This document shows, in pieces, positions 238 through 30,999 of a stretch of DNA of 30,999 nt. The DNA is from Bacteroides sp. Lineage in GTDB: Bacteria; Bacteroidota; Bacteroidia; Bacteroidales; Bacteroidaceae. A program made the position numbers and the translations under genes. Where the stretch lies: positions 1 through 30,999 of the forward strand of contig JAUMWZ010000002.1 of assembly GCA_030529405.1 (NCBI GenBank). Direction: 5' to 3'. A model generated the notes under the pieces. That model searched no databases and was not told the DNA's origin. It saw nothing but the letters and a program-made list of their open reading frames with translations. How positions within the stretch are numbered: position 1 is the first letter of the stretch; every line of letters begins with the position of its first letter.

Positions 238-361
238 AATGATATACAGCTGATTTGTAAAACGTATATCATTTAGATATAAAATATATACAGTTTGGAA
301 ATTGACTATATACAGTTTGGTTGTAAACTATATATAGCTTAGGAACCAACTGTGTGTTGTT
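238..361. repeat. 22-bp-period palindromic array A (6 units, last degenerate)
   Basis: Units start at 238, 260, 282, 304, 326, 348 (e.g. GACTATATACAGTT, AACTATATATAGCT); spacers gatttgta, tagatata, tggaaatt, tggttgta, taggaacc. Confidence 0.9.
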
Positions 362-382
362 TACTCAATAGATGTTATATGT

Positions 383-1003
383 TTACTCTTCCTCCTCGTT
401 GCCTTTTAGTGTTGGCAAACATATATGGTATTTTGCAGAAATAAGTCTTGCGGCGAAAACAGTACTTCCTGCAAGTATTTGGCAAACTACATCTTCCAGT
501 CCTATGTAGCTTGCAAACCAATATGTTATACCACCAATAACGCAGGCTATTGCATATATTTCTTTTCTGAAAATAAGAGGTATTTCATTTATCAATACAT
601 CTCTAATTACGCCTCCAGCAGCACCTGTCATGCTACCCATAATAACTGCCACCCAAAAAGGCATTCCAAGAGCAATGCTTTTTCCTACACCTACCACTGT
701 GAAAAGAGCCAATCCGATGCTGTCGAATATGAAAAAAGTGTTGTGGAGATGTATGAGTGTGCGGCTGAAAAGAATAACCCATAGCAAAGCCAAGCCCGTA
801 CATATCAAATATATTGGGTCTGTCATCCAACCTGGAGTTACATCTAAAAGCAAATCTCTGATAGTACCCCCACCAATGGCAGTTACAAAGCCCACGACAT
901 AAGCTCCAAACCAGTCGAAACGCTTAGCTGATGCAAGCCTTATTCCACTGATAGCAAAGGCGAAAGTTCCTACGAAGTCGAGTATTTGTACAAATGTTGT
1001 CAT
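383..1003 (-). CDS. Trimeric intracellular cation channel (TRIC / UPF0126, YadS-like) family membrane protein
   Basis: Duplicated motifs GTFAFAISG...TAIGGGTIRDLLL and DSIGLALF...GAAGGVIRDVL; hydrophobic. Start moved to MTTFVQ (1003) because the ORF-track extension overlaps the divergent gene. Confidence 0.9.
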   Translation of the reverse strand: MTTFVQILDFVGTFAFAISGIRLASAKRFDWFGAYVVGFVTAIGGGTIRDLLLDVTPGWMTDPIYLICTGLALLWVILFSRTLIHLHNTFFIFDSIGLALFTVVGVGKSIALGMPFWVAVIMGSMTGAAGGVIRDVLINEIPLIFRKEIYAIACVIGGITYWFASYIGLEDVVCQILAGSTVFAARLISAKYHICLPTLKGNEEEE

Positions 1004-1054
1004 ATATAAACTATTTTTGTCTGCAAAGTAACTAATAAATTCCCTAAGAAAATA

Positions 1055-1062
1055 TACTTTTG
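1055..1062 (+). promoter_or_regulatory. Bacteroidetes -7 promoter element (TAnnTTTG) for the wecB-like gene
   Basis: TACTTTTG ending 26 nt upstream of ATG 1088. Confidence 0.55.
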
Positions 1063-1087
1063 TGTTCCAAACGGAAGTTATATAAAT

Positions 1088-2176
1088 ATGAAAATAACAA
1101 TAATAGCAGGGGCAAGACCTAACTTTATGAAAATTGCTCCCATAGTACATGCAATAGATGCAGCTAAAACAAACGGTAAGAACGTGTCTTATAGGTTGGT
1201 GTTTACAGGAACTAAAGACGACAGCAGTATTGATGCATCTTTGTTTTCTGACCTAGATATGAGAGAACCTGATGTGTATTTAGGTGTGAAACACTCTAAC
1301 TCTATTGCTATGGCAGCAAACATTATGATTGAGTTTGAAAGGGAATTACTGCAAAATACTGCCGACTTGGTTTTGGTGGTAGATGACCTTACTGCCACAA
1401 TGAGTTGTTCTATCGTTGCAAAGAAAAGGGGCTTGAAGGTGGCGCATCTTGTAGCTGGAACACGTTCGTTTGATATAAATATGCCTAAAGAGGTAAACAG
1501 AGTAATCACTGACGGACTAGCTGATTATCTTTTCACAGCTGGTATGGTGGCAAACAAAAACCTTAACCAAACGGGGGCAGAAAGCAAGAAAATATATTAC
1601 GTGGGTAATGTGTTGATTGACTCAATAAGGTATAACAGACACAGACTTATACGTCCTATGTGGTTTGGCTCATTAGGACTAGAGGAAAAGAAATATATAC
1701 TACTGACCATAAATAGAAGAACGCTTACGTCTAATAAAGAGAAGCTGAAAGAAATTGTATCTAAGGTGGTAGAAAAATCAAAAGGCATTCCAGTAATAGC
1801 ACCATTGCATAACTACGTGAGAGAAGCTATTGAAAAGTTGAATGTCAAAGCAGATAATCTGCATATAATACCATCGCAAAGCTATCTGTCATTCGGTTTC
1901 TTGGTAAATAATGCTATGGGGATTGTAACTGACTCTGGAAATGTGGCAGAAGAAGCTACTTTCTTGAACATACCTTGCATCACTTTGAATGATTTTGCTG
2001 AACACCCAGAAACTTATAAAGTAGGAACTAATGTGTTGGTGGGAGAAGATGTAGAGGCACTTTCTCAATCATTGGAAGTTATGATTAACGGAGAATGGAA
2101 GAAAGGTGTGTTGCCAGAAAAATGGGACGGAAGAACATCTGAAAGAATAATACAGATTCTTACAGAAGTGGAATAA
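1088..2176 (+). CDS. wecB: UDP-N-acetylglucosamine 2-epimerase (non-hydrolysing) family protein, divergent active site
   Basis: N-terminal GARPNFMKIAP, AGTRSFD..MPKEVNR, VTDSG..AEEA...IPCITL, HPET motifs. Confidence 0.85.
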   Translation: MKITIIAGARPNFMKIAPIVHAIDAAKTNGKNVSYRLVFTGTKDDSSIDASLFSDLDMREPDVYLGVKHSNSIAMAANIMIEFERELLQNTADLVLVVDDLTATMSCSIVAKKRGLKVAHLVAGTRSFDINMPKEVNRVITDGLADYLFTAGMVANKNLNQTGAESKKIYYVGNVLIDSIRYNRHRLIRPMWFGSLGLEEKKYILLTINRRTLTSNKEKLKEIVSKVVEKSKGIPVIAPLHNYVREAIEKLNVKADNLHIIPSQSYLSFGFLVNNAMGIVTDSGNVAEEATFLNIPCITLNDFAEHPETYKVGTNVLVGEDVEALSQSLEVMINGEWKKGVLPEKWDGRTSERIIQILTEVE

Positions 2177-2322
2177 ATATAACTCAAGGTTGGGCAATGA
2201 ATGTGTTATGTCATGTTGCTCAACCTTTTGTGCTTTATCTGAAACTGTTGGGAGGGTAGGAGATTATCATCTGCAAATGTTTCATCAATAATCATAATAA
2301 TAGACTTTATTATCAAAACAGT

Positions 2323-4917
2323 ATGAAGTTTTTGAGGTTTATAGCCATAATATATTTTATGTCTTTTGTCTTTATTGCGAAAGGGCAAATGATATCTGGA
2401 GTAGTGACAGATTCTGTTACTAAAGAAGCAGTAATGTATGCGTCGGTGGTTTACGAGGACAAGAGAGATTCGGGAACAAGCACAAATATCGATGGCGAAT
2501 ACAAACTGCTTTCAAGAGGAAAAGGAAAGAGGCTTATTTTCTCAGCTCTTGGATATAAATCTAAAACTGTTTCTGTAAAAGGAGGAGAAGAAGTTATAAA
2601 TGTTGTGTTGGAACAAGAGAGTATCGCTCTGAATGAAGTTGTAGTGAAGGCAAGGAAAGATAAGTATTCGCGCAAAAACAATCCTGCTGTCGAGTTTATG
2701 AAGAAGGTTATAAGCAACAAAAAGCATCAGAAACTCGAAGAGAATGATTACTACAGGTACAATAAGTATGAGAAGATGAAACTTTCTATCAATGATATCA
2801 CTGAAGAAAGTATGAAGAAAGGGATATACAAGAAGTATGCCTTCATCAAAGATCAGGTTGAACGCTCTCTAGTTACTGGTAAGATGATTCTTCCAATATC
2901 TGTGCAAGAAACCGTGTCGGAGGTTGTTTACCGAAAAAATCCAGAAGATAAGAAAGAGATAATACACGGAGTTAATAACAACGGTATAGAGGAATATTTT
3001 TCATCTGGAGAAATGTTGGGTACAATACTAAAAGAAGTTTTTGCCAATGTAAACATATACGACAACGAGATAAGATTACTTCGCCAGAGATTTGTTAGCC
3101 CTATAAGCGACAACTCTATATCATTCTATAAGTTTTACTTGATGGATACCGTCAAGATTGAGGATAGAGAATGCGTACACCTTACTTTTGTACCGCAAAA
3201 TTCGCAAGACTTTGGTTTCACAGGTCACCTTTATGTGCTTAAAGACTCTACTTATGCCGTGAGAAAATGTATAATGAACTTACCTAAAAACACTGGAGTT
3301 AATTGGGTAAATAATATGAACATAGTGCAAAAGTTTCATCAATTGAGCAATGGTAATTGGGCACTTACTGATGATGACGTTACGGTTGATTTGTCATGGG
3401 ATAAGAATAAAACTTCACAGAGTTTACAGGTGGAGAAATTGACAAAGTACAGTGACTATTCATTTGAAGAAGTAGACAAACGCATTTTTAAGTTCAAGGG
3501 CGACCTGATTAAAGAGGCTAATATGCTCAACAAAGATGAAAGCTTTTGGCAGAAGTTCAGAAAGGTGCCGCTGACTAAGAACGAAAGCAACATGGACGTA
3601 TTTATGAATAAACTTGGACAAATACCAGGTTTCAAGTTCATAATATTCGGAACAAAAGCACTTATAGAAAACAGTATCGAGCTAGGAACTAAGGATAAGC
3701 CGAGCAAGATAGATATTGCTCCAGTAAACACTATGGTTACAAGCAACTATGTAGATGGGCTTCGCCTCAGATTGAGTGCAATGACTACGGCAAAACTTAA
3801 TCCTTATCTTTTCGCTGATGGTTATCTTGCTTACGGATTCAAAGATAAACGTTGGAAATATAATGCTAAACTGTCTTATTCTTTTCTTAAAAGAGATTTT
3901 GTTGTATGGGAGTTCCCTAAGCACTTTATATCTGCATCATATTCTTACGATGTAATGTCTCCGATGGATAAGTTCTTGTTTACCGACAAGGATAATGTCT
4001 TTGTGTCTTTCAAGACTACTACAGTAGACCAAATGTCATATATAAGAGATGCGGTAATAAACTATGAATTGGAACAAAGGAATGGTTTGTCTGTAAAAGC
4101 AATGTTAAGACATAGAAACGACGAGCCAGCAGGAATACTCCAATATATACCTAATGTTCGCGACGAGAATAATAACATCGTTCTCGGAACTTCTCCTATA
4201 AAAGATATAACTACTTCTGAAATAAACCTTACACTAAGGTATGCTCCGGGCGAAAGATTTGTGAATACAAAGCAAAGACGCATACCTGTATCTCTTGATG
4301 CTCCACGATTTTCTATCAGCCATACTATGGGATTGAAGGGAGTGTTAGGTGGTCAGTACAACTTCAATCGTACAGAAGCAAGTATATGGAAGAGATTTTG
4401 GTTGCCATCTTCTTGGGGTAGAGTAGACTTCAGTATAAAAGGTGGAGTTGAATGGAATAAAGTTCCTTTCCCATTGCTTATCATGCCAGAAGCCAACCTC
4501 TCTTATATCACTCAGAACGAAACATTCTGTTTGATAAACAATATGGAGTTTTTGAACGACAGGTTTGCATCTCTTTCAATGTCATACAATATGAACGGAA
4601 AACTATTTAATAGAATTCCACTTCTAAGAAAACTAAACTGGAGAGAGATGTTCAGGGTAAGAATGCTGTGGGGTACTCTTACAGACAAGAACAATCCGTT
4701 TAAGAGTAAGGACGACTATCTGTTTGACTTCCCTCGCAGGAATGGTCAATACACAAGTCATGTAATGGACCCTAAGATGCCATATATAGAGGCTAGCTTT
4801 GGTATATACAATATATTCAAACTGTTACATATAGAATATGTACACAGATTTACTTACTTGAACCACCCAAATATAAATAAAAACGGATTACGTTTTATGA
4901 TACAAACAGTGTTCTGA
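2323..4917 (+). CDS. DUF5686 family outer-membrane protein with N-terminal carboxypeptidase-regulatory-like domain
   Basis: Signal peptide; ISGVVTDSVTKE...TSTNIDGEY...FSALGY domain; KYSRKNNPAVEFMKKVI; C-terminal aromatic beta-strand ending in F. Confidence 0.8.
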   Translation: MKFLRFIAIIYFMSFVFIAKGQMISGVVTDSVTKEAVMYASVVYEDKRDSGTSTNIDGEYKLLSRGKGKRLIFSALGYKSKTVSVKGGEEVINVVLEQESIALNEVVVKARKDKYSRKNNPAVEFMKKVISNKKHQKLEENDYYRYNKYEKMKLSINDITEESMKKGIYKKYAFIKDQVERSLVTGKMILPISVQETVSEVVYRKNPEDKKEIIHGVNNNGIEEYFSSGEMLGTILKEVFANVNIYDNEIRLLRQRFVSPISDNSISFYKFYLMDTVKIEDRECVHLTFVPQNSQDFGFTGHLYVLKDSTYAVRKCIMNLPKNTGVNWVNNMNIVQKFHQLSNGNWALTDDDVTVDLSWDKNKTSQSLQVEKLTKYSDYSFEEVDKRIFKFKGDLIKEANMLNKDESFWQKFRKVPLTKNESNMDVFMNKLGQIPGFKFIIFGTKALIENSIELGTKDKPSKIDIAPVNTMVTSNYVDGLRLRLSAMTTAKLNPYLFADGYLAYGFKDKRWKYNAKLSYSFLKRDFVVWEFPKHFISASYSYDVMSPMDKFLFTDKDNVFVSFKTTTVDQMSYIRDAVINYELEQRNGLSVKAMLRHRNDEPAGILQYIPNVRDENNNIVLGTSPIKDITTSEINLTLRYAPGERFVNTKQRRIPVSLDAPRFSISHTMGLKGVLGGQYNFNRTEASIWKRFWLPSSWGRVDFSIKGGVEWNKVPFPLLIMPEANLSYITQNETFCLINNMEFLNDRFASLSMSYNMNGKLFNRIPLLRKLNWREMFRVRMLWGTLTDKNNPFKSKDDYLFDFPRRNGQYTSHVMDPKMPYIEASFGIYNIFKLLHIEYVHRFTYLNHPNINKNGLRFMIQTVF

Positions 4918-4940
4918 TGAACACATAAACAGTATTATAT

Positions 4941-6212
4941 ATGCAACCTTTGGCAGAAAGATTACGACCTCGCACGTTTGATGACTACATAGGACAAGAA
5001 CATTTAGTAGGAAAGGGGGCTGTTATCCGCAATATGGTGGAATCAGGTCGTATCTCTTCTTTCATTCTTTGGGGACCTCCTGGAGTGGGAAAGACCACTC
5101 TTGCCCAAATGATAGCCAACAAACTTTCCACATCTTTTTATACTCTCAGCGCAGTGACCTCTGGAGTTAAAGATGTGCGTGAGGTTATTGAGAAAGCTAA
5201 AAATAGTCGCTTTTTCAGTCAGAACAGCCCAATTCTTTTCATAGACGAGATTCATCGTTTCAGCAAATCACAACAAGACTCACTACTTGGTGCAGTAGAA
5301 AACGGCACAATAACTTTGATTGGTGCCACAACTGAGAATCCTTCGTTCGAGGTTATTCGTCCTCTTCTCTCACGCTGTCAATTATATGTTCTAAAGCCAT
5401 TAGAGAAAGACCATCTACTCAAACTCCTTGAAAATGCTATCAAAAAAGACGTTGTTTTGAAAGAGAAAAACATTGTTCTTTCAGAAACAGATGCCATCAT
5501 CAGATACTCTGGAGGAGATGCTCGCAAACTGTTAAACATTCTCGAGTTGGTTGTATATTACCAACCTGGAAACGATATACAAATTACAAATGAATTAGTA
5601 ATAAATGTTCTCCAGCAAAACCCTCTTGCTTACGACAAGAGTGGAGACCTGCACTACGATATAATATCAGCCTTTATCAAGTCAATAAGAGGTAGCGACC
5701 CAGATGCAGCTGTCTATTGGTTAGCTAGAATGATTGAAGGTGGCGAAGACCCAACCTTTATAGCTCGGAGATTAGTTATTTCAGCCTCAGAAGACATAGG
5801 CTTGGCAAATCCTAATGCACTCTTGCTTGCCAATTCATGCTTTGACACGGTTAAGAATATAGGAATGCCAGAGGGCAGGATAGTACTCTCTCAAACGGCA
5901 ATATATTTGGCTACAAGCCCAAAAAGCAATTCTGCCTACATGGCTATAAACGATGCTCTTGATTTGGTAAAACGAACAGGAAATCTACCCGTGCCACTCC
6001 ACCTGAGAAATGCGCCAACTAAGCTGATGAAAGAGCTTGGTTATGGGGCTGACTATAAATATTCTCACAACTACGACAATAATTTTGTGGCGCAAGAATA
6101 CCTTCCACCTCAACTTGGTGATGTGTCATTGTGGCAACCACAAAACAATTCTGCCGAGCAGAAGATAAGAGAGCGTATGCAATCTATTTGGAAAGACAGA
6201 TACAATAAATAA
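4941..6212 (+). CDS. rarA: Replication-associated recombination protein A (AAA+ ATPase, MgsA/RarA)
   Basis: MQPLAERLRPRTF, Walker A GPPGVGKTT, Walker B LFIDEIHRF, GATTENPSFEV, HYDIISAFIKSIRGSDPDAA, VPLHLRNAPTKLMKELGYG. Confidence 0.95.
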   Translation: MQPLAERLRPRTFDDYIGQEHLVGKGAVIRNMVESGRISSFILWGPPGVGKTTLAQMIANKLSTSFYTLSAVTSGVKDVREVIEKAKNSRFFSQNSPILFIDEIHRFSKSQQDSLLGAVENGTITLIGATTENPSFEVIRPLLSRCQLYVLKPLEKDHLLKLLENAIKKDVVLKEKNIVLSETDAIIRYSGGDARKLLNILELVVYYQPGNDIQITNELVINVLQQNPLAYDKSGDLHYDIISAFIKSIRGSDPDAAVYWLARMIEGGEDPTFIARRLVISASEDIGLANPNALLLANSCFDTVKNIGMPEGRIVLSQTAIYLATSPKSNSAYMAINDALDLVKRTGNLPVPLHLRNAPTKLMKELGYGADYKYSHNYDNNFVAQEYLPPQLGDVSLWQPQNNSAEQKIRERMQSIWKDRYNK

Positions 6213-6236
6213 TAATAAACAATATAACACAGAACT

Positions 6237-7193: not shown

Positions 7194-7230
7194 TGCTTAT
7201 CTGCCCTCTTGGGCTAGCGTTTTATCATAC

Positions 7231-7283
7231 AAAACAGTTATCATTTGGTTGCTTATTAGCTACACTTGATAACTGTTTTTTTA
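7231..7283 (+). terminator. Intrinsic terminator after the dehydrogenase
   Basis: AAAACAGTTATCA(7231-7243)/TGATAACTGTTTT(7267-7279) followed by a T run; long loop. Confidence 0.6.
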
Positions 7284-7526
7284 TTGCTTACACCCATACT
7301 GACACTATTTCTTTCCCTTTTTCTCTTTTCATCTTTCTCGTTTTAATTGTTGTTTTGTTATCTATGTGATTGGTTCCTCTTGTCGTCTACTTTATCTGAT
7401 TTTCTTGTAATAATCTGTTATATAATACGTTTTATGTATTTTTCACGTTTGGCTATTTGTGTGATAATTATAAATATATATCTTTCTGCAGATTATTAAC
7501 CAAAAATTAAAAACGAGAGAAGTATT

Positions 7527-7937: not shown

Positions 7938-7959
7938 TGCATACTCACTGTTAAGTTAT

Positions 7960-8151: not shown

Positions 8152-8231
8152 AACCATATACAGTTGAGTTGCAAACCGTATATAGTCAATAAACAAACTA
8201 TATATAGTTTAGAAATCAACTGTATATAGTC
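8152..8231. repeat. 22-bp-period palindromic array B (4 units)
   Basis: Units at 8152, 8174, 8196, 8218 (AACCATATACAGTT, AACCGTATATAGTC, AACTATATATAGTT, AACTGTATATAGTC); spacers gagttgca, aataaaca, tagaaatc. Confidence 0.92.
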
Positions 8232-10434: not shown

Positions 10435-10460
10435 ACTGTGCATATAACACACCGTTTCTA

Positions 10461-10540
10461 AACGATATATTGTTTGGAAGTTGGTTATATATAAATTGGG
10501 AGCAAACTGTATACAGTCTGCTCCCAATTTATATATACTC
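10461..10540. repeat. 22-bp-period palindromic array C (4 units)
   Basis: Units at 10461, 10483, 10505 (AACTGTATACAGTC), 10527; spacers tggaagtt, tgggagca, tgctccca. Confidence 0.85.
10486..10537. terminator. Near-perfect 52-bp palindrome between convergent genes; probable bidirectional terminator
   Basis: TATATATAAATTGGGAGCA(10486-10504)/TGCTCCCAATTTATATATA(10519-10537) around the palindromic core ACTGTATACAGT. Confidence 0.65.
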
Positions 10541-13028: not shown

Positions 13029-13475
13029 ATGATGTTCAAGGAAAGTACAATTAAAAAGATTAAAGAAGCTATTAAGCAGGCTATATCTGTCTACACTTCG
13101 TCAGATATAGAATTTATTCACACTGATATTTACATTCAGGCAGACAGATTGCTTGGTGAGTTGAATTTCAGTAACGATGAAGATGCAGAACTATATTCTG
13201 TAAGCATAGGAGAATTGAAGTCTGACACTCTAGAGGGCTATTACGAAAACTTAGAAGATGAATTGCGTAGCATTTTGGAAGATATGTATTCGGAATCAGT
13301 CTTTGATAAAGTGAAAATATCTACTCCTTACTCTTTCGTATTGATAGACGAAAACAAGGAAACAATATCTGACCTTTTGTTGATAGATGATGACACTGTT
13401 GTTCTTAACGGCGGACTTTTGAAAGGTTTAGATAAAGAGTTGGACGACTTTTTGAAGAACCTTTTAGAATCGTGA
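13029..13475 (+). CDS. Acidic conserved hypothetical protein (Bacteroidales type)
   Basis: 148-aa ORF with its own promoter box; C-terminus PYSFVLIDENKETISDLLLIDDD...LKGLDKELDDFLKNLL resembles, from recall, a Bacteroides-conserved hypothetical family. Confidence 0.8.
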   Translation: MMFKESTIKKIKEAIKQAISVYTSSDIEFIHTDIYIQADRLLGELNFSNDEDAELYSVSIGELKSDTLEGYYENLEDELRSILEDMYSESVFDKVKISTPYSFVLIDENKETISDLLLIDDDTVVLNGGLLKGLDKELDDFLKNLLES

Positions 13476-13713: not shown

Positions 13714-13815
13714 ACCTGTATTAAGTCATTTTCTAATTTATATACAACTGACTTGCAAATAATATATAGCTGACTTCTAAACCATATATAGTTTGTTTAT
13801 TGACTGTATACAGTT
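13714..13815. repeat. 22-bp-period palindromic array D (5 units, first degenerate)
   Basis: Units at 13714, 13736, 13758, 13780, 13802 (GACTGTATACAGTT); spacers attttcta, gacttgca, gacttcta, tgtttatt. Confidence 0.9.
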
Positions 13816-13910
13816 TGCAAAGCGTGTTTTCTTAACCTTTATCTGAGATAATAATATTCAATAGAAAAAATATATGCTTTTTGTGTTGCTATGATGCAAA
13901 CAAAAAAACT

Positions 13911-13918: not shown

Positions 13919-13977
13919 TGTTTATGAACTAAAAGGCAAAGAGTCTTTTATCCTTAACAATCTAATAACAAAACAAT

Positions 13978-15645
13978 ATGAAAACAGATATTGAAATTGC
14001 ACGTAGCATAGAGCTAAAGAATATTGCAGAGGTTGCAGAATCGGTTGGTATAGATGCTAACAGTCTGGAAAGCTATGGCAAGCACATAGCAAAGGTGCCA
14101 TACAAGCTAATTGATGAAGAAAAGGTAAAGAAAAGTAACCTTATTCTTGTTACAGCCATTACTGCCACAAAGGCGGGAATAGGTAAGACTACCGTGTCAA
14201 TAGGTCTTGCTCTTGGACTAAACAAAATAGGAAAGAAAGCCATAGTAGCTTTACGTGAGCCGTCATTGGGCCCATGTTTCGGAATGAAAGGTGGTGCTAC
14301 TGGCGGTGGATATGCACAAGTGTTGCCTATGGAAAAGATAAATCTGCACTTCACTGGAGATTTTCATGCCATAACATCTGCTCACAACATGATTTCGGCA
14401 ATGCTAGACAACTACTTGTATCAGAATCAATCTAACGGATTCTCTCTTAAAGAAGTGCTTTGGAAGAGAGTGTTAGACGTCAATGACCGCTCACTTCGTA
14501 GCATCATTGTAGGTATGGGGCCTAAAACTAATGGACTGTTGCAAGAGTCAGGCTTCGACATTACCTCGGCTTCTGAGATTATGGCAATTCTATGCTTATC
14601 TAAAGACATAGAAGATTTAAGAAGAAGAATAGAAAACATCATACTTGGTTTCACTCACGACGATAAACCATTCACTGTGAAAGACCTTGGAGTTGCAGGA
14701 GCAGTAACAGTGTTGTTGCAGGAGGCTATTAACCCTAACTTAGTGCAAACTACTGAGGGTACGCCTGCGTTTGTACACGGTGGACCATTTGCTAATATAG
14801 CACACGGTTGCAACTCTCTTATTGCTACCAAGACAGCAATGACCTTTGCAGACTATGTTGTTACAGAGGCTGGATTTGGAGCAGACTTAGGTGCTGAGAA
14901 ATTCTATGACATCAAGTGTCGCAAGTCTGGTCTTCGTCCGCGTGCAACAGTTATTGTTGCCACCGCACAAGGGCTTAAAATGCACGGAGGTGTAGAACTT
15001 GAGAAGATAAAAGAGCCAAACATTGACGGACTGAGAGAAGGACTTAAAAACCTAGATAAGCACATCAAAAACTTACAGTCTTTTGGTCAGACAGTAGTGG
15101 TAGCTTTCAACAGGTTTGCAACAGATACAAATGAGGAGATAGAAGTCTTAAAGAACTACTGTAATGCTATCGGTGTGGACTGTGCTATAAACAATGCCTT
15201 TATGGAAGGTGGTGATGGTGCTATAGAGCTAGCCAACGTTGTTGTTAATGCAATAGAGAAACACCCTTCTAAGGAGCTAAAGTTTGCTTACGAAGAAAAC
15301 GACAGCGTGAAGACAAAGGTTGATAAGTTGGCAAAAAATATATATGGAGCTAAAGATGTGGTATATAGTCTTGCGGCTAAAAACAAGATTAAGCTGATAG
15401 AAAGTTTAGGTATATCTCACTATCCGATATGTATTGCTAAGACTCAATTCTCTTTCTCTGCCGACCAAAAGGCGTATGGAGTTGCCAAAGACTTTGAGTT
15501 TAGTATAAAAGACATTGTTATAAACAATGGGGCAGAGATGATTGTGGTTATAGCGGGAGAAATAATGAGAATGCCGGGACTTCCTAAATCGCCTCAAGCG
15601 TTGCATATTGACATTGTAGATGGCGAAATTGAAGGACTTAGCTAA
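13978..15645 (+). CDS. fhs: Formate--tetrahydrofolate ligase
   Basis: [83 protein letters not shown]. Confidence 0.97.
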
Positions 15646-15680
15646 TAACACATAACAAAACATATAGCAAGTAATGCTAG

Positions 15681-15722
15681 GAGCAACCGAGTGATGACAT
15701 CACTTTGGTTGCTCTTTTTTTA
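15681..15722 (+). terminator. Intrinsic terminator after fhs
   Basis: GAGCAACCGAGTGATG/CATCACTTTGGTTGCTC stem followed by a T run. Confidence 0.8.
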
Positions 15723-15800: not shown

Positions 15801-15880
15801 AACAATATATTGTTTGCAAGTCAGCTGTATATAATTGACTTCTAGACTGTATATAGTTTAATTGTTAGCTGTATATGGTT
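15801..15880. repeat. 22-bp-period palindromic array E (4 units)
   Basis: Units at 15801, 15823, 15845 (GACTGTATATAGTT), 15867; spacers tgcaagtc, gacttcta, taattgtt. Confidence 0.92.
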
Positions 15881-17997: not shown

Positions 17998-18099
17998 AAC
18001 TGTATATAGTTGGAAAATCAGTTATTTATAGTTTGCAAGTCAGCTGTATATGTTTTGCAAATAGACCGTATATGTTTTGCAAAATGTGTATATATAGTC
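17998..18099. repeat. 22-bp-period palindromic array F (5 units)
   Basis: Units at 17998 (AACTGTATATAGTT), 18020, 18042, 18064, 18086; spacers ggaaaatc, tgcaagtc, tgcaaata, tgcaaaat. Confidence 0.92.
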
Positions 18100-21091: not shown

Positions 21092-21171
21092 AAGTATATA
21101 TGATTTACTTCTTAGCTATATATGGTTTGCAAGTCAGCTGTATATGATTTAGAAATTGACTGTATACGGTT
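21092..21171. repeat. 22-bp-period palindromic array G (4 units)
   Basis: Units at 21092, 21114, 21136, 21158 (GACTGTATACGGTT); spacers tacttctt, tgcaagtc, tagaaatt. Confidence 0.9.
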
Positions 21172-21859: not shown

Positions 21860-21961
21860 AGTTGTAAATGTCTGCTTTGCAAACTGTATACAGTTGTTGT
21901 CTAAACTGTATATAGTTAGTTTTCTGATTATATACAGTTTGTTTCTTGACCATATATGATT
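21860..21961. repeat. 22-bp-period palindromic array H (5 units, first degenerate)
   Basis: Units at 21860, 21882 (perfect palindrome AACTGTATACAGTT), 21904, 21926, 21948; spacers gctttgca, gttgtcta, agttttct, tgtttctt. Confidence 0.92.
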
Positions 21962-23024: not shown

Positions 23025-23046
23025 CGCTGATGTAAAAAATAAGTAA

Positions 23047-24237: not shown

Positions 24238-24238
24238 T

Positions 24239-25135
24239 ATGAAAAAGTTTACAAAAGAAGTAAGAATAGGAATTGCAGCAATAATAAGTCTGACGTTGGC
24301 AATATTTGGCTTTAACTGGCTTAAAGGAACAAATCTGTTAGAACCAAAGACTTTTTACTACATAACCTTTAGTAACATTGGAGGTTTGTCAAAGTCGAGT
24401 GCCGTGTTTGCCGATGGTGTTAAGATTGGTAATGTTAGAGATATAAAATACAGACAAACAGAGGAAGACAACATCGTTGTTCAGATTGAAGTCAGCGATG
24501 ATATACGCATACCAAAAGGAAGTACTGCCGAACTGGTGTCAGAGATAATGGGTGGAATGCATATTGATATACTTATGACAAACAATCCACGTGAAAGAGT
24601 GATGGTAGGCGACACATTGAAGGGCGAGCTGAATAAAGGATTGATGGCAAACGTTGCACGAATTGCACCGAAAATAGAGCAGCTTGTGCCTAAAGTTGAT
24701 TCTATTTTGGTCGGAATGAATAGTGTGTTCAGAAACGAAAAGCTACAAAAGTCTATGGAAAATCTTGAGAAAACTACCGCAAACCTAGCAGAGATAACTC
24801 AAGCGATAAAGGGACTTATGAACTCAGAAGTAAAGGAAATAGCTAAGAATATAAATATTGCAAGCAATAACTTTGCTCACGTGAGCGGAGAACTAAAAAG
24901 TATTGACTATAAAAAGATGTTAGACCAAATAGACCAAACAGTAGCCACTACCAAGAATTTGGTAAACAAACTGAATACATCAGAAGGTACTATTGGACTG
25001 CTACTAAACGATGCTACGCTGTATAACAACCTTAATCAAGCATCAGAAAATGCAGCATCTCTGTTGAAAGACTTACAGACTAACCCTAAGAAATACGTTC
25101 ACTTCTCTATATGGGGAAGAAAGAATAATAAATAG
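24239..25135 (+). CDS. MCE / MlaD family protein
   Basis: KEVRIG N-terminal TM anchor, GL..SSAVFADGVKIG.V, IP.GSTAEL, helical tail GTIGLLLND..LY.NL...LL.DL..NPKKYVHFS. Confidence 0.9.
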   Translation: MKKFTKEVRIGIAAIISLTLAIFGFNWLKGTNLLEPKTFYYITFSNIGGLSKSSAVFADGVKIGNVRDIKYRQTEEDNIVVQIEVSDDIRIPKGSTAELVSEIMGGMHIDILMTNNPRERVMVGDTLKGELNKGLMANVARIAPKIEQLVPKVDSILVGMNSVFRNEKLQKSMENLEKTTANLAEITQAIKGLMNSEVKEIAKNINIASNNFAHVSGELKSIDYKKMLDQIDQTVATTKNLVNKLNTSEGTIGLLLNDATLYNNLNQASENAASLLKDLQTNPKKYVHFSIWGRKNNK

Positions 25136-25155
25136 TGATTATCAGTCTGTTTGCA

Positions 25156-25235
25156 GACTATATATCATTTAGAAATTGACTGTATATAAATTGAAAGTTG
25201 ATTGTATATAACTGACTTCTAATTTATATACAGTT
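25156..25235. repeat. 22-bp-period palindromic array I (4 units)
   Basis: Units at 25156, 25178, 25200, 25222; spacers tagaaatt, tgaaagtt, gacttcta. Confidence 0.9.
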
Positions 25236-25465
25236 TTCTTTTTATGTGATAATACCCCTTTTCTGTGCGTATGTCATCATAGAATTATAATCTACTTATC
25301 CACTATTCCATCTAAAAACATCTGTCTTGCAAACCCCCTCTATTGGTGTGATAATTAGTTGTTTCACTAATAAAACTATTCTTCGTTTCGACATCTATAC
25401 TATATAATATGCGTTTTATGCAACAAAAAAAGAGCAATAAGTGTTGCTCATTAAGAAATTAGTGC

Positions 25466-25473
25466 TACCTTTG
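25466..25473 (+). promoter_or_regulatory. -7 promoter element for tRNA-Cys
   Basis: TACCTTTG ending 18 nt upstream of the tRNA. Confidence 0.6.
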
Positions 25474-25490
25474 CAGACGTATTAACCAAC

Positions 25491-25562
25491 GGTTCCTTGG
25501 ATGAGTGGTTTAGTCAGCGGTCTGCAAAACCGTTTACGGCGGTTCGAATCCGCCAGGAACCT
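25491..25562 (+). tRNA. tRNA-Cys (GCA)
   Basis: GGTTCCT...AGGAACC-T acceptor with U73; anticodon arm GCGGT-CTGCAAA-ACCGT; T arm GGCGG-TTCGAAT-CCGCC; CCA not encoded. Confidence 0.95.
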
Positions 25563-25569
25563 CAAGAGA

Positions 25570-25608
25570 AATCCTCTAAAAGATTTTATTAAAATCTTTT
25601 AGAGGATT
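25570..25608. terminator. 18-bp perfect hairpin after tRNA-Cys (probable bidirectional terminator)
   Basis: AATCCTCTAAAAGATTTT-att-AAAATCTTTTAGAGGATT between convergent tRNA-Cys and the ICMT-like gene. Confidence 0.75.
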
Positions 25609-25758
25609 GTTTTATTGCCTTCTTTAACTTTGAGTCTAGTTGATTTTTCTTGTTTTGTTATATCACACACATTCATTATAAAGCATAAAGAAGTCGTTCG
25701 CTTTATCTTGTTTATTTGATTTAATTGTTCAGATATGTCTTTTGTAATAACATATACG

Positions 25759-26322
25759 TCACTTTATCAATAAATATCGTGGTGTTTCAGCTTTATATTT
25801 AAGGTATTCCTCGCCGTATGTTTGTTCGCAGTAGCGTTCTTCTCCAAGTATAATCAAGTGGGTTAAGATGATGAAAGGTATCATTATCAATGTGAGCCAA
25901 AGCGATGCGGTGGCTATGCACACACCAAACATTCCTGCAAAGAAAAATGAGTACATTGGGTTGCGAGAATAACGATATATCCCTCTTACGACGGTCTTGT
26001 CTGACGGCGTGTTGGCATAGCAATGGAAGGCATATACAAAACAAATTAGTGATGGAATAAAGATTATTGAGCCTATGATAAACCAAACTGTGCCTATTTT
26101 CAGAGGTATGAATATGGAAACTATCAAAACGAGTATTTGCATCGCACTACTTCCGTATGAGTTTATCTTATCTTTTGTGGTGTACCACGAAGTGTCTACG
26201 GCACGTTTGCCACCTTCAATGAAGAACAGCATATACATAAACTGAATGATAATCATACCAAATGACGGTATCCATGCGTTTAGCCAGCCGGCTTGTAGTG
26301 TTGTGTAGAAAGATAAATCCAT
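25759..26322 (-). CDS. Isoprenylcysteine carboxylmethyltransferase / PEMT family membrane methyltransferase
   Basis: Hydrophobic; V.RGIYRYSRNPMY, EERYC...YGEEY..YK..TPRY motifs. Confidence 0.85.
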   Translation of the reverse strand: MDLSFYTTLQAGWLNAWIPSFGMIIIQFMYMLFFIEGGKRAVDTSWYTTKDKINSYGSSAMQILVLIVSIFIPLKIGTVWFIIGSIIFIPSLICFVYAFHCYANTPSDKTVVRGIYRYSRNPMYSFFFAGMFGVCIATASLWLTLIMIPFIILTHLIILGEERYCEQTYGEEYLKYKAETPRYLLIK

Positions 26323-26337
26323 TATAATGTGTTTTTT

Positions 26338-26417
26338 AGTTGTTAATAGTTCGTTTTTCAGCTGTATATGGTTTGCTTCTAAACTGTATATACTCTATTT
26401 GTAAACCATATATGGTT
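26338..26417. repeat. 22-bp-period palindromic array J (4 units, first degenerate)
   Basis: Units at 26338, 26360, 26382, 26404 (AACCATATATGGTT); spacers cgtttttc, tgcttcta, tatttgta. Confidence 0.88.
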
Positions 26418-26648
26418 TGTTTTGCCGTTGTGTGTTGGGCTCTCAACAATATGTTATAACTCGATTTTTCGTGATTAAACTTGCTGTGCAAAACGATATG
26501 TCAAAGTTATGCGGTTGATGAATGGTTTGCAATAGCAATAAATAATGATTTTAGAGTGAAAGTCAGATTGTTATAGCGTGATATCGTTACTTCTTGTAGC
26601 AGATAGTGTTCGATGTGTTTTTATTCTTAGAAGAAAAAAGTCTTTGAT

Positions 26649-26972
26649 ATGTTTTCTTTTTCGCCACAATCTGCTTATGTTCGCAGAGTTATGACTGACG
26701 AAGAATTGCTGTTATATATTAGTGGTATCAAGCTCAATGGTTTCTTTGCCCTCACGGAGATTTCAAAGAGGGGAGAGGGTATGCCTATTGGGGTGGAAGA
26801 GTTTCTACAAACGAGGGTGGAAGATATAATATGCGGTGCCAAGACAAAGAAGTTTGTGTATTCAAACGGTGGTTGGCGTCTTGTGTTTACATTGTTTCCT
26901 ACTACCAAGGTTGTTGAGGAACGCTATGCCGTGAAAAATAAGGTTATGTCCGTGATGAAGAGGAAACTGTAA
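26649..26972 (+). CDS. Hypothetical protein (107 aa)
   Basis: Only substantial ORF in the interval; protein-like composition (KFVYSNGGWRLVFTLFPT); no function recognised. Confidence 0.65.
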   Translation: MFSFSPQSAYVRRVMTDEELLLYISGIKLNGFFALTEISKRGEGMPIGVEEFLQTRVEDIICGAKTKKFVYSNGGWRLVFTLFPTTKVVEERYAVKNKVMSVMKRKL

Positions 26973-27062
26973 TCTTGTGTAGATTGCTGGCTCGTCTTAA
27001 ATTTATCTTTTCTTTATTTTTTCTATTCAGATTGTTTTTAGGCGTGTTTTTGTCTGTTCTCA

Positions 27063-27164
27063 GACTGTATATTGCTGATATGTAAACTGTATATTATCTG
27101 GGATTAAACTATGAATAACTGAAAAATAGATTATATACAGTTTGGAATATGATTGTATATGGTT
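27063..27164. repeat. 22-bp-period palindromic array K (5 units)
   Basis: Units at 27063, 27085, 27107, 27129 (GATTATATACAGTT), 27151; spacers gatatgta, tgggatta, gaaaaata, tggaatat. Confidence 0.88.
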
Positions 27165-27223
27165 AATTTATGTGTTTTGTATAGTCCCTTTCACTGCTGT
27201 ATGTTAGTTTTCAGCAAGACCAA

Positions 27224-27265
27224 ATAAAAAGGGCTGGAAACTTTTCTTTGTGTTCCCAACCCTTA
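27224..27265 (-). terminator. Probable terminator for ompH
   Basis: Imperfect stem AAGGGCTGGAAAC/GTTCCCAACCCTT, followed by TTTAT on the minus strand. Confidence 0.5.
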
Positions 27266-27290
27266 TGTATGTTTTATGTTCTAAATCTTA

Positions 27291-27893
27291 TTACTTCTTC
27301 GCTGAAGTATATCTTGAGTTTAGACCATCTACTATTTCTTTAGTGATGTTGTATGCTTCTTCTGCGTGAAGAATATTCTCAAATCCTGTTCTGCTGAATA
27401 TCATACTGTATTTTTTCTCTGCATTATACTCCTTCAAGTAAGTGCTTATTGAGTCTCTAAGTCTTTGAGTGTTGCTCATGTTTGCTTCTGCCAAACTTCC
27501 TTGCAACTTATTGTTCAACTCTTCCAACTCTCTTTCTTTCTTCAAAAGTCTAGTATATTCTTGTTCTGCTCTCTCTTTAGAAAGGAATGCGTTGTTTTCT
27601 ACTTTTGACTGAAATTCTTGCTTCTCTTTTGCCAATGCGTTAGCTTTTTGGTTTAGCGTAAGTCTTACGTCTTCTGCCTTTTTAACCATCTCTTCGTTGA
27701 TGTCTATGCTTAGTTGATATTTTGTAAGTAGTGAATCAACATCTACATAAGCTAATTTTAGTTCTGAATTTGTAGAAGAATTATTTGCAGAACTAGCAGT
27801 AGATTCAACTTCAGAGTTCTTAGCACATTGTGCAAACAGGATAGCTACTGCCACAATAGTCAATCCTTTCAAAAGAAAATTTAATTTGTTCAT
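27291..27893 (-). CDS. ompH: OmpH/Skp family chaperone, probable lipoprotein
   Basis: Lipobox-like FAQC; LAYVDVDSLL, coiled-coil body, YSMIF, ILHAEEAYNITKEIVDGLN. Confidence 0.88.
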   Translation of the reverse strand: MNKLNFLLKGLTIVAVAILFAQCAKNSEVESTASSANNSSTNSELKLAYVDVDSLLTKYQLSIDINEEMVKKAEDVRLTLNQKANALAKEKQEFQSKVENNAFLSKERAEQEYTRLLKKERELEELNNKLQGSLAEANMSNTQRLRDSISTYLKEYNAEKKYSMIFSRTGFENILHAEEAYNITKEIVDGLNSRYTSAKK

Positions 27894-27944
27894 AATATTA
27901 TTGTTGTTTTTTTTATATTCAAGTTTTACTAGTTTGTTAGCTGA

Positions 27945-28157
27945 CTAACAACTCTTTTGCTTTACTCCTTTCATTGGTTTTCTCTGTGCTTCTCTGTCTT
28001 GTGACTGAACACAACCTACACCTTTATCACGCAAATACTTGTTTCCGCTGACGTGTCCGTTAGGAAACTTTTTGCCTTTAATAAAGAATATGTTCACTCC
28101 AAGTAGTATCAGAGAAATAGCAACTATTAACAGAGTTATGATTACAGTATCAATCAT
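27945..28157 (-). CDS. Small conserved membrane-anchored hypothetical protein
   Basis: N-terminal TM helix, then KFPNGHVSGNKYLRDKGVGCVQSQDREAQ; start at MIDT because TATATTTG lies at 28177-28184 on the minus strand. Confidence 0.75.
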   Translation of the reverse strand: MIDTVIITLLIVAISLILLGVNIFFIKGKKFPNGHVSGNKYLRDKGVGCVQSQDREAQRKPMKGVKQKSC

Positions 28158-28257
28158 TTGTATTAAATTTGTTGTGCAAATATAAACCTTATATATATAA
28201 AGCATTAAGTATATAGTATCAAATTAACCATATTTAGCACAGAGCGAGAGCAAAAAA

Positions 28258-28265
28258 TATCTTTG
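28258..28265 (+). promoter_or_regulatory. -7 promoter element for pepD
   Basis: TATCTTTG ending 26 nt upstream of ATG 28291. Confidence 0.6.
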
Positions 28266-28290
28266 TGCTGGATAAGTAAAATAAAATATC

Positions 28291-29751
28291 ATGGAAATAA
28301 AAGATTTTAAGTCAGCAGGAGTGTTTAAGTACTTCGAAGAAATATGTCAAGTACCGCGTCCGTCAAAGAAAGAAGAAAAGATTATTCAGTATCTTAAAGA
28401 CTTCGGTAAGAAGCATAATCTTGAAACATCAGTAGATGAGATTGGCAACGTACTTATAAAAAAGCCTGCAACTAAAGGAAAAGAAAACCTAGAAACAGTA
28501 GTGTTGCAGTCGCACGTAGATATGGTGTGCGAGAAAAATAAAGATGTAGAACACGACTTCCTAAAAGACCCTATTGTTACAATAATAGAAGGTGAGTGGA
28601 TGAAAGCTAAGGGTACAACGCTTGGTGCAGATAACGGTATCGGTGTTGCTACTGAACTTGCAATCCTAGCAGATAATACTTTGGAGCATGGACCAATAGA
28701 ATGTCTGTTTACAGTAGACGAAGAAACCGGACTAACAGGAGCATTTGCCCTCAAAGAAGGCTTTATTTCGGGCAATATACTTCTTAACTTAGACTCAGAA
28801 GATGAAGGCGAGTTGTTTATAGGCTGTGCAGGTGGTATAGATTCTGTAGCTGAGTTTGAATATAAGACAGTAGACGTTCCAAAAGATTACTTCTGCTTTA
28901 GAGTGGACGTTAAGGGCTTAAAAGGTGGTCACTCAGGTGGAGATATTCACTTAGGAAGAGGAAATGCGAACAAGATTCTTAACAGATTTCTTGTAAGGGT
29001 ATCTAAGAAATACAACCTATATCTATGCGAAATAGACGGTGGTAATCTTAGAAATGCAATTCCGAGAGAGGCACATGCTGTGTTCGCTGTACCTCAAGAA
29101 GCAAAACACGATATAGTAACTATGTTGAATGTGTTCAATGCTGAGATGGAGTCTGAGCTTGGTGTGGTAGAACCAGACTTGAAATTGATTCTAGAATCAG
29201 AAAACTTCTGTGCTAAAGCAATAGATCAAGACACAACATGTAAACTTATGAGTGCTCTTACTGCTGTACACCATGGAGTTTATGCAATGAGCCACGACAT
29301 ACCAGGACTTGTTGAAACATCTACAAACCTTGCATCTATCAAGATGAAACCGAACAACATTATAAAGGTAGAAACTAGTCAAAGAAGTTCTATTGCATCT
29401 GCAAAAGAAGATATGGCAAACACTGTTCGCGCGGTATTTAACCTTGCTGGTGCGAAGGTTAGCTTTGGTGATGGTTATCCTGGTTGGAAACCTAATCCTA
29501 ATTCAGCTATACTTAAGGTTGCAGCAGAGTCTTACAAAAAACTATTTGGTGTAGAGGCTAAGGTTAAGGCTATACATGCCGGACTTGAGTGTGGTCTATT
29601 CTTAGACAAATATCCTAACTTGGATATGGTTTCATTTGGCCCAACTTTGACTGGAGTTCACTCTCCTGACGAACGTATGCATATACCTTCAGTAGAGAAA
29701 TTCTGGATACATTTGATAGATATATTAGCTAACGCACCGGTTAAGAAGTAA
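28291..29751 (+). CDS. pepD: Aminoacyl-histidine dipeptidase (M20 family)
   Basis: LQSHVDMVCEK, TTLGADNGIG, FTVDEETGL, LNLDSEDEGE, GGHSG.DIH.GRGNANK, IHAGLECG, VHSPDER. Confidence 0.96.
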   Translation: MEIKDFKSAGVFKYFEEICQVPRPSKKEEKIIQYLKDFGKKHNLETSVDEIGNVLIKKPATKGKENLETVVLQSHVDMVCEKNKDVEHDFLKDPIVTIIEGEWMKAKGTTLGADNGIGVATELAILADNTLEHGPIECLFTVDEETGLTGAFALKEGFISGNILLNLDSEDEGELFIGCAGGIDSVAEFEYKTVDVPKDYFCFRVDVKGLKGGHSGGDIHLGRGNANKILNRFLVRVSKKYNLYLCEIDGGNLRNAIPREAHAVFAVPQEAKHDIVTMLNVFNAEMESELGVVEPDLKLILESENFCAKAIDQDTTCKLMSALTAVHHGVYAMSHDIPGLVETSTNLASIKMKPNNIIKVETSQRSSIASAKEDMANTVRAVFNLAGAKVSFGDGYPGWKPNPNSAILKVAAESYKKLFGVEAKVKAIHAGLECGLFLDKYPNLDMVSFGPTLTGVHSPDERMHIPSVEKFWIHLIDILANAPVKK

Positions 29752-29769
29752 TTTCTTAGCTATAAATAT

Positions 29770-29803
29770 AGGCTACCCAATCAATGGGTAGCCTTTTCTT
29801 TTT
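29770..29803 (+). terminator. Intrinsic terminator after pepD
   Basis: AGGCTACCCA/TGGGTAGCCT 10-bp stem followed by TTTCTTTTT. Confidence 0.8.
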
Positions 29804-29843
29804 GTGCATATTACGCACATCTTTCAGCCCACTTATATTTGCT

Positions 29844-30890
29844 ATGAAATCAGTTCTATATTACTTTGTTTTCACACTGTATTTACTTGTGTCGCAAACT
29901 GTATATTGCCAAAAAACAGACTCTATACAGTTTAGAATAATGTCGTGGAACGTTGAAAATCTGTTTGATACAAAACACGACACACTAAAGCAAGACTATG
30001 AGTTTTTGCCAGATACTCTCAGGCGTTGGACAAATACACGTTACAGGAAGAAACTCAAAGATATAGCAACGACTATTGTGTCTGTTGGCGAAATGATACC
30101 ACCGTCTTTGGTGGCACTCTGCGAGGTTGAAAACGAAAAGGTGATGAACGACCTTACAAAGTATTCTCCGCTAAAGAAGATGGAGTATGATTATGTGATG
30201 ACAAACTCTAAGGATTTGCGTGGAATAGATGTTGCACTGCTCTATCAGCGAGCAATGTTTAACCTCATAGAAAGCAGATCTATACGGATAGGTAAGTTTG
30301 ATGATTACCCACCTACAAGAGATGTTCTGCATGTTTCGGGCAGAGTTCTGTCGGGTGATACCCTAGATGTGTTTGTCTGCCATTTACCGTCACGCCGTTT
30401 GGGATATAAGCGTTCAGAAAGATATAGGACACACGTTGCCAAAACGATAAAGACTTATGCCGACAGCATAATGAATATAAGGCAGATACCTAATATTATC
30501 CTTATGGGCGACTTTAACGCTACACTTACCGACCCTTGCATCTGCAAAGCACTGTCTGCAACTCCAACTTCCAAATACACAACCGATAAAGACAAAACTC
30601 TGTTTATTCTCCAACCCAAAGAGTATGGCAGTATCAAGATTGGTACATACAAGTATCGTGGAGAGTGGGAGTTTATTGACCATATAATCATCAGTGGCAG
30701 AATGCTTAACGATAAAAACAAGGTTAAGTATGTAAAAGATAGTGGCAGACTGTCTAAACTCGATTTTTTGTTAATGCCAGACGAAAAGTACAACGGTGTT
30801 CAGATGAACAAAACCTATGTTGGGTTCAGATATAAAGGCGGTATAAGCGACCACCTGCCCGTATGTGCTGACTTCGTCATACACTTCTAA
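29844..30890 (+). CDS. Endonuclease/exonuclease/phosphatase (EEP) family protein, probably secreted
   Basis: SWNVENLFD, LCEVEN, GIDVALLY, TRDVLHV, HLPSR, MGDFN, SDHLPV. Start at MKSV (29844); the ORF-track start 29784 lies inside the pepD terminator. Confidence 0.9.
   Translation: MKSVLYYFVFTLYLLVSQTVYCQKTDSIQFRIMSWNVENLFDTKHDTLKQDYEFLPDTLRRWTNTRYRKKLKDIATTIVSVGEMIPPSLVALCEVENEKVMNDLTKYSPLKKMEYDYVMTNSKDLRGIDVALLYQRAMFNLIESRSIRIGKFDDYPPTRDVLHVSGRVLSGDTLDVFVCHLPSRRLGYKRSERYRTHVAKTIKTYADSIMNIRQIPNIILMGDFNATLTDPCICKALSATPTSKYTTDKDKTLFILQPKEYGSIKIGTYKYRGEWEFIDHIIISGRMLNDKNKVKYVKDSGRLSKLDFLLMPDEKYNGVQMNKTYVGFRYKGGISDHLPVCADFVIHF
29875..29932. repeat. 22-bp-period array M inside the EEP gene N-terminus (3 units)
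   Basis: CACTGTATTTACTT(29875), AACTGTATATTGCC(29897), GACTCTATACAGTT(29919), followed by the family-type spacer tagaataa. Confidence 0.7.
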
Positions 30891-30965
30891 TTATCATCAG
30901 GTAATTCGTCTTGCCGAAACAATACAAAAGCTCTCTGTTTCAAGTTGATTTATAATGGTTACGCC

Positions 30966-30999
30966 AACTATATACAGTTTGCAAATCAGCTGTATATGG
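30966..30999. repeat. 22-bp-period palindromic array L (at least 2 units; truncated by the window end)
   Basis: AACTATATACAGTT(30966)-tgcaaatc-AGCTGTATATGG(30988). Confidence 0.85.

Follow-up and report, generated by a model that had tools for sequence, protein, structure and literature searches.

Dispersed extragenic palindromic repeats have been found mainly in Proteobacteria, and what they do is still a matter of debate. The REP and BIME elements are GC-rich hairpins of 20–40 bp that carry a GTAG or CGTC tag, alternate in orientation, are joined by variable linkers and are associated with a Y1 (HUH) RAYT gene (PMC3733652). In the Bacteroidales, the BrickBuilt elements of Porphyromonas gingivalis consist of 23-nt units with leader and tail segments and IS5-type ends (GAGACC...), and are present in 19 copies (Klein et al. 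2015, PMC4596501); that paper also mentions, as uncharacterised, '22 nucleotide tandem direct repeats' of P. gingivalis W83. Here we analyse arrays of an AT-rich palindrome, repeated every 22 bp, in a 30,999-nucleotide stretch of Bacteroides sp. DNA (the window, JAUMWZ010000002.1, positions 1 to 30,999). The window is one contig of a metagenome-assembled genome (MAG) of 1.66 Mb in 247 contigs, 77% complete with 0.09% contamination and 37% G+C. What distinguishes these arrays is a geometric rule (22 bp, usually four units), an occupancy of about one array per inter-operon gap, and conservation that falls on the phased TATA centres and not on pairing. We read them, with about even confidence, as a copied and now vertically inherited repeat that is kept at the DNA level as putative phased protein-binding sites.

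Geometry, copying and placement of the arrays

All 13 arrays that the original prediction had located in the window from its sequence alone are present (Table 1), with about 53 units counted where about 55 had been proposed. One boundary shifts: an array does lie where a start at 21860 had been given, and we begin it at 21882, the earlier start adding one very degenerate unit. With up to three mismatches, AACTRTATAYAGTT has 54 matches in the window, compared with 10.2 ± 3.2 in shuffled sequences (largest 18), and Tandem Repeats Finder calls a period of 22 at 10 of the 13 sites. Across the whole genome, 572 matches are found at up to one mismatch, compared with five for a reversed control pattern. 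Allowing two mismatches yields 1322 matches, with 560 pairs of neighbours exactly 22 bp apart, whereas Markov-shuffled genomes give 55–67 matches and no such pair. When three mismatches are allowed, neighbours stand 22 bp apart 1073 times, 44 bp apart 107 times, 23 bp apart once and 21 bp apart never, and spacings of 20–24 bp other than 22 come to four cases in total. The inter-match distances thus show the sharp peak at 22 bp, far above shuffled genomes, that had been expected, and 1073 such spacings despite degenerate units bear out the view that substitutions are tolerated and spacing is not. The genome carries 622 arrays, of which 515 have at least two units, in keeping with the many hundreds that had been extrapolated; together they cover 2.8% of the assembly. 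Of the 622, 103 are no more than 100 bp away from the end of a contig, which accounts for about 21% of all contig ends, and the assembly perhaps breaks at arrays because their unit number varies among strains.

Each unit is built from an 8-bp core, TRTATAYA, flanked by the arms AAAC and GTTT, and a 14-bp junction separates successive cores. Since a strongly conserved AA lies off its centre, the junction has a direction (oriented consensus GTTTRNAARTMRRC), and both orientations occur within arrays. The two outer ends of an array always bear a complete arm (TTTGCAAAC ... GTTTGCAAA), and the array profile shows no conserved flank beyond this terminal arm. Four units is the commonest size (317 of 622 arrays); the usual array is about 90 bp long, and pairs 88 bp apart are rare. 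Over some 1900 units, the profile reaches 0.94–0.99 at the central TATA and 0.56–0.92 in the arms (0.64–0.92 at their A/T positions), with lower values in the spacers. As 22 bp is about two helical turns, the units of an array share one face of the helix.

Identity to the consensus averages 0.70, and no array exceeds 79%. Whole four-unit arrays are 61% alike, and their pairwise identities form a single-peaked distribution near that expected if arrays were drawn independently from the profile; young copies are almost absent. The sole near-identical pair of whole arrays (98%), at 1617–1712 and 2432–2527 of contig C13 of the MAG, probably marks a local segmental duplication. Concerted evolution within arrays is rejected by unit likeness, which is 0.605 within an array and 0.596 between arrays. 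Two-unit blocks with at least 38 of 44 positions matching make up 524 pairs, compared with 57 in a column shuffle, and in the window the block at 8169–8217 in array B matches the reverse complement of the block at 13772–13820 in array D at 45 of 49 positions. Given this excess of near-identical two-unit blocks, including that of B and D, we conclude that arrays were copied from one another, mostly long ago. A 'home' or master array tied to one gene was considered and rejected, the longest arrays having unrelated neighbours. In one contig of the same species (L206:7279–7533), array F has exactly one 22-bp unit fewer, four instead of five; unit number therefore changes by whole units, probably through slippage or unequal exchange.

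Crude gene calls (1292 genes) make 84% of the assembly coding, and about 90% of the arrays fall outside these genes, in agreement with the intergenic, genome-wide family that had been proposed. An array occupies 62% of convergent, 52% of divergent and 26–30% of tandem gaps, and the unoccupied tandem gaps are mostly short and inside operons. Among gaps of at least 200 bp, roughly 70–95% hold an array, in convergent, divergent and tandem settings alike. Exactly one array is found in 321 gaps and two in five, which is far from random insertion, because such saturation would give many double occupancies. Within tandem gaps the array lies a median of 71 bp from the upstream stop codon and 119 bp from the downstream start codon. 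Arrays avoid the last ~50 bp before start codons as well as the region 50–120 bp upstream, and many are found 0–30 bp past stop codons.

In a simple scan, a terminator-like hairpin precedes the array in 47 cases and follows it in 13, and most gaps, including most 3′ gaps, contain no recognisable intrinsic terminator. RNA contigs of the fhs gene from four metatranscriptome assemblies run from 13924–14029 to 15575–15692 and leave arrays D and E outside, and those of a 148-aa open reading frame (ORF) beside array D extend into that array. This evidence is weak and does not fix transcript ends, because contigs break or form chimeras at arrays. A promoter role was likewise considered. The Bacteroidetes –7 box is TAnnTTTG, and by eye the array end reads TA-n-TTTG or TA-nnn-TTTG; arrays lie at widely varying distances from start codons, no sigma-70 enrichment is seen, and the role was rejected.

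Inheritance, constraint and rival explanations

Orthologous loci were taken from Logan contigs of the same species (HD protein 98% identical) and of a sister species (HD 90%, OmpH 91%). The sister species shares about 90% protein identity and the same gene order, with 0.60 identity at four-fold degenerate sites. All seven arrays checked are at the same place there, one of them rearranged. The arrays are older than the split from the sister species and have since been vertically inherited. Rates between the species come from four gap-free aligned arrays with 16 units, a small sample, in which the register is kept and the orientation patterns of the junctions are stable. Identity is 0.94 at the central TATA (60 of 64), 0.72 at the adjacent purine/pyrimidine (R/Y) positions, 0.76 in the arms and 0.73 in the spacers, compared with 0.74 at A/T sites (176 of 239) and 0.53 at G/C sites of the flanking intergenic DNA. 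Conservation demonstrably exceeds background at the central TATA and in the register, but not in the arms. Array G, in the HD–LptD gap, is absent from relatives whose HD proteins are 74% and 69% identical and in which the gap measures 87–90 bp; as these more distant relatives are without it, the array was gained in this lineage. The relative at 74% has array-like remnants of the same motif elsewhere.

Partner proteins were sought in the MAG, whose 77% completeness limits every gene absence reported here. A six-frame search gives no match to RAYT (Y1_Tnp, PF01797) at E ≤ 0.01. The only match to DDE_Tnp_1 is broken by a TAG stop (contig C209, 2992–3309), and two tyrosine recombinases were found, both Xer-like; on these results, a RAYT, DDE transposase or tyrosine recombinase partner is not supported. 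DUF6078 (PF19555) was also evaluated. Its gene is present in 14 of 40 genomes of the same family, and a 21–22-bp palindrome array lies at the 3′ end of the gene at six of seven loci (five of six same-family loci, L229–L234, and one in a Prevotella MAG), with a palindrome that differs by locus. No array is seen at the L231 locus, and one of the same-family arrays has GTTTA..TAAAC arms like those of the window. The predicted DUF6078 structure has a predicted local distance difference test score (pLDDT) of 95, with three invariant cysteines and a fourth that is nearly so; it has no significant match in the PDB, and its helical part faintly resembles lambda-repressor-type domains. Neither the Pfam model, nor our own profile, nor a Cys-motif scan finds DUF6078 in the MAG, and searches of Porphyromonas gulae and of two further genomes with TATA-core arrays did not find it either. 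In a Prevotella MAG from red deer, the array 3′ of the single DUF6078 gene (L228:1300–1520) is of a different type, TGGTAGC..GCTACCA, and not of the TATA-core family found elsewhere in that genome. On these grounds DUF6078 is not supported as the partner. The 16-bp unit matches the NrdR-box consensus at 14 of 16 positions; NrdR (TIGR00244) was found neither in the MAG, which has only a 20.9-bit ATP-cone match, nor in any of the 40 same-family genomes, and the identity with NrdR boxes is therefore rejected. These negative searches accord with the earlier impression that no cognate gene is evident.

In the history that we propose, the arrays would first have spread by a copy mechanism that reads the arms. 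This would have happened in the ancestor of a small clade, filling inter-operon gaps with one array each, and vertical inheritance would have followed. Selection would now keep them as DNA, in the form of four sites along one helix face for a dimeric or a dyad- or shape-reading protein, which would rely on the flexibility of the TATA centre. Set between transcription units, the resulting complex of fixed size could then serve as an architectural, topological or roadblock element. No binder was found, and phased binding is what we infer. The original prediction had offered two readings without choosing, either a dimer bound in phase or a selfish repeat of the REP/BIME kind, and the evidence points to a mixture of the two: shared blocks and a gained site speak for copying, orthologous arrays, TATA and register speak for constraint at the DNA level, and the binder was not found.

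Several observations weigh against this history. Arms and spacers are kept no better than flanking A/T sites, which gives no support for a base-specific reading of the whole 14-bp palindrome, and the comparison between species covers four aligned arrays and 16 units only. All 225 bp of the SBF–HD gap are without an indel between the species, so indels may be rare here generally, and the argument from spacing is somewhat weakened. A mean consensus identity of 0.70 is near the expectation for neutral decay since an old burst. Folded as single strands, the arrays do better than shuffles (mean −21.6 versus −10.3 kcal/mol, z = −4.3), and the single strand may therefore have a structural role. Finally, no binding protein was found, and the searches of the 77% complete MAG detected none of DUF6078, RAYT and NrdR. 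A further-reaching version we consider unlikely. In it, a system that organises the chromosome genome-wide would have the arrays as its DNA component: almost all boundaries of transcription units would bear a single four-site, 88-bp array from a domesticated repeat, and an architectural protein reading the phased TATA centres would, with the array, insulate operons as a supercoil barrier or polymerase roadblock.

Because the arms change at the pace of the flanks and no binder was found, a slowly decaying selfish repeat is a serious rival, although we judge it somewhat unlikely. [quoted passage not shown] It accommodates the lineage-specific motif, which is at control level in 40 relatives and whose core pattern is unenriched in 400 genomes (see below), as well as the signs of copying, the one gained site, the arms and spacers that evolve like flanking A/T sites, and a consensus identity that fits decay since before the species split. 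The polymorphism by whole 22-bp units, the avoidance of the 50–120 bp upstream of genes' start codons, which is expected of tolerated insertions, and the arrays at 21% of contig ends point the same way. However, decay does not readily account for the practical absence of 21- and 23-bp spacings beside 1073 of 22 bp at about 30% unit divergence, or for a central TATA at 0.94–0.99 over ~1900 units that also exceeds the flanking A/T sites between species (0.94 versus 0.74). Single occupancy (321 versus 5 gaps) at 70–95% saturation is unlike random insertion, pairwise identity is unimodal with almost no young copies, and no transposase partner was found in the MAG. The recombinase that the original prediction had listed among possible binders fares worse. 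Site-specific recombination sites of the lox/FRT kind, with inverted arms and an asymmetric 8-bp spacer that flips by inversion, would explain why directional junctions occur in both orientations within arrays. Yet ~1900 such sites would scramble the chromosome, while gene order matches that of the sister species; orientation patterns are stable between the species in the aligned arrays, and with only two Xer-like tyrosine recombinases found we regard this explanation as very improbable.

Palindromic units also suggest RNA or single-stranded DNA hairpins, acting like REPs as two-way terminators, 3′-end stabilisers or substrates of a single-strand transposase. The folding advantage over shuffles, the many arrays 0–30 bp past stop codons, the RNA contigs that extend into arrays and the 3′ gaps that mostly have no recognisable intrinsic terminator are all in keeping with such a role. 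The variation among units is not. Watson–Crick pairing between mirror positions is at or below the expectation for independence in 10 of 11 position pairs, the compensated G..C state of the R/Y pair is depleted about two-fold (83 observed, ~157 expected), and nearly all unit variation consists of single-sided transitions. Within arrays, the balance of G–T-type and A–C-type mispairs is strand-biased (variance 21 versus 8.8 expected) independently of the direction of the neighbouring gene; this bias reflects junction polarity, not RNA selection, and G–U-type mispairs are not preferred on the sense strand. Real arrays retain about one-third of the folding energy of the consensus, arrays are equally common in divergent gaps, where no termination is needed, and terminators, where present, mostly precede the array. 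No Rfam family matches the arrays. Selection on RNA or hairpins is thus rejected by the co-variation and strand tests and is not supported, and we think hairpins improbable as the explanation overall. A similarly small chance goes to a DNA element that needs no protein, in which phased flexible TATA steps, through directional bendability or easy melting, buffer supercoils between transcription units. It is consistent with conservation above the flanks at only the TATA centre and the two-turn register, with the recurrence of core and period beside unrelated arms in other Bacteroidota, and with arrays between transcription units of every orientation. Other Bacteroidales 22-bp families, however, have GC-rich or non-TATA centres, the fixed four units and conserved outer arms suggest a defined complex, and cruciform extrusion needs a complementarity that is not maintained.

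The window and its neighbouring features

The genes of the window are ordinary housekeeping genes of Bacteroidota type, among them DUF5686, type III glutamine synthetase, LptD_2, FTHFS, AsnA and OmpH. The nearest named proteins are from Bacteroides and Mediterranea, at 58–71% identity, and the species of the MAG is the sole representative of its genus in the genome collection that we compared. The sequence occurs in public animal-gut metagenome runs, several of which carry a feline label.

Table 1. Arrays of 22-bp-spaced palindromes in the window (positions counted from its first nucleotide)
Array	Positions	Units	Setting and remarks	Sister species
A	238..361	6	Units in 22-bp register, outer units degenerate	
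B	8152..8231	4		
C	10461..10540	4	Between convergent S9 peptidase and type III glutamine synthetase genes; 27 bp past stop codon	
D	13714..13815	5	Upstream of fhs gene	
E	15801..15880	4	Between fhs RNA-contig ends (15575-15692) and tRNA gene	
F	17998..18099	5		Present
G	21092..21171	4	HD-LptD gene gap	Present
H	21882..21961	4	SBF-HD gene gap	Array in register
I	25156..25235	4	21 bp past MlaD stop codon	91% identical
J	26338..26417	4	16 bp upstream of PEMT-like gene	
K	27063..27164	5	Downstream of OmpH gene	Present, rearranged
L	29875..29932	3	Inside or just 5′ of nuclease-like ORF start (ExeM/NucH-like, Exo_endo_phos)	
M	30966..30999	1+	Ends with the window	4-unit array at matching place

Two features beside arrays of the window deserve mention. 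The stretch around array L (29752–29990) is about 90% identical to a contig of the sister species (L236:7607–7849), far above the other gaps, and because of this conservation the repeat may be coding or regulatory there. The 148-aa ORF beside array D (13029–13475, + strand) encodes a very acidic protein with no Pfam or NCBIfam family, and it has the top contig depth (~540) among the contigs listed for one feline metatranscriptome. As a binder of the arrays it was rejected, being very acidic and without a family match.

Parallel families and described systems

In 24 genera of the same family and in 16 other families of the order, the exact motif does not rise above control level. This MAG contains 112 occurrences of a phased TATA-core pattern, three cores spaced 22 bp apart, which is not enriched in any of 400 other genomes from across the order; the only two with matches have 5 and 1, compared with 7 and 2 for the reversed control. 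A scan of one genome per species with this triple-core pattern returned mostly (TA)n noise, together with leads in Porphyromonas, Prevotella and elsewhere. These leads reveal parallel dispersed families in other Bacteroidota with the same core and period and different arms. In Porphyromonas gulae DSM 15663, 86 pairs of cores stand 22 bp apart, compared with none in the control, and there are five-unit arrays with a TRTATAYA core, AAATCG/CGATTT arms and the junction AATCGTTTTCGATT (for example L051:5069–5252, L057:6655–6838 and L067:845–1028); this family may correspond to the uncharacterised 22-nt repeats of P. gingivalis W83. The red-deer Prevotella MAG holds a very homogeneous, and probably young, family of TATA-core arrays (for example L064:540–723 and L074:3001–3184). 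Two further MAGs, one of a human-gut Bacteroidales and one of a Saprospiraceae, show 13 core pairs each, compared with none in the control. Unrelated Bacteroidales contigs bear 22-bp arrays of quite different palindromes, some with GC-rich or non-TATA centres, and a metagenome scan with AsnA returned only relatives at about 74% identity, which carry other types of 22-bp array. In the Bacteroidaceae MAG RUI084 (L046:993–1242), a nearly perfect tandem repeat of 12 units, with a 22-bp period and the core TGTATATACG, looks like an ordinary young minisatellite, not a four-unit array.

Three of these features go beyond the first view of the window, namely the unit number near four, the single array per gap and the parallel families in other Bacteroidota. 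If a reader protein exists, the arrays would represent a new layer of chromosome organisation in the Bacteroidales, a dominant group of the gut, and if they do act as boundaries they would be a bacterial counterpart of boundary elements. The parallel families of Porphyromonas, which is genetically manipulable, make the question testable. On the practical side, the arrays break metagenome assemblies, as the share of contig ends here indicates.

In a literature search of limited scope we found no description of 22-bp phased arrays, 'undescribed' being used here in the sense of not found, and, in line with the original prediction, which recognised none, we found no named family in the literature or in Rfam that fits them. 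Like REPs and BIMEs, the arrays consist of short imperfect palindromes outside genes, present in hundreds and clustered into composite arrays. In contrast to them, the units here are AT-rich, follow one another head to tail at exactly 22 bp, usually number four and are common between divergent genes; there is no tag, no maintained pairing and, in this MAG, no RAYT was found. Among 312 four-unit arrays, GTAG occurs in 35 and CGTC in two, neither at a conserved position of the profile. As in a MITE, the array ends are inverted, but they are the same as the internal arms, and the empty sites of relatives have diverged too far for target-site duplications to be seen. BrickBuilt is alike as a MITE/minisatellite element of Bacteroidales intergenic DNA, made of short tandem units and dispersed over the genome; it was rejected as the same element because the period here is exactly 22 bp and no conserved flank extends past the terminal arm.

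The arrays next to DUF6078 genes share the 21–22-bp register, palindromic units, few units per array and intergenic dispersal, and differ in that no DUF6078 gene was found in this MAG. Regulatory operators offer another comparison. ARG boxes are 18-bp AT-rich palindromes about 21 bp apart that form tandem operators on one helix face, and NrdR boxes occur at nrd promoters as pairs 31–32 bp apart, compared with the spacing of 22 bp here. Both resemble the present arrays as AT-rich dyads at integral helical turns that are bound cooperatively by oligomers, and both differ from them in scale, with few sites at specific promoters as opposed to some 600 arrays. The TATA-core arrays are, taken together, a new, very abundant and lineage-specific family within an apparently undescribed Bacteroidales class of 22-bp phased palindromes.

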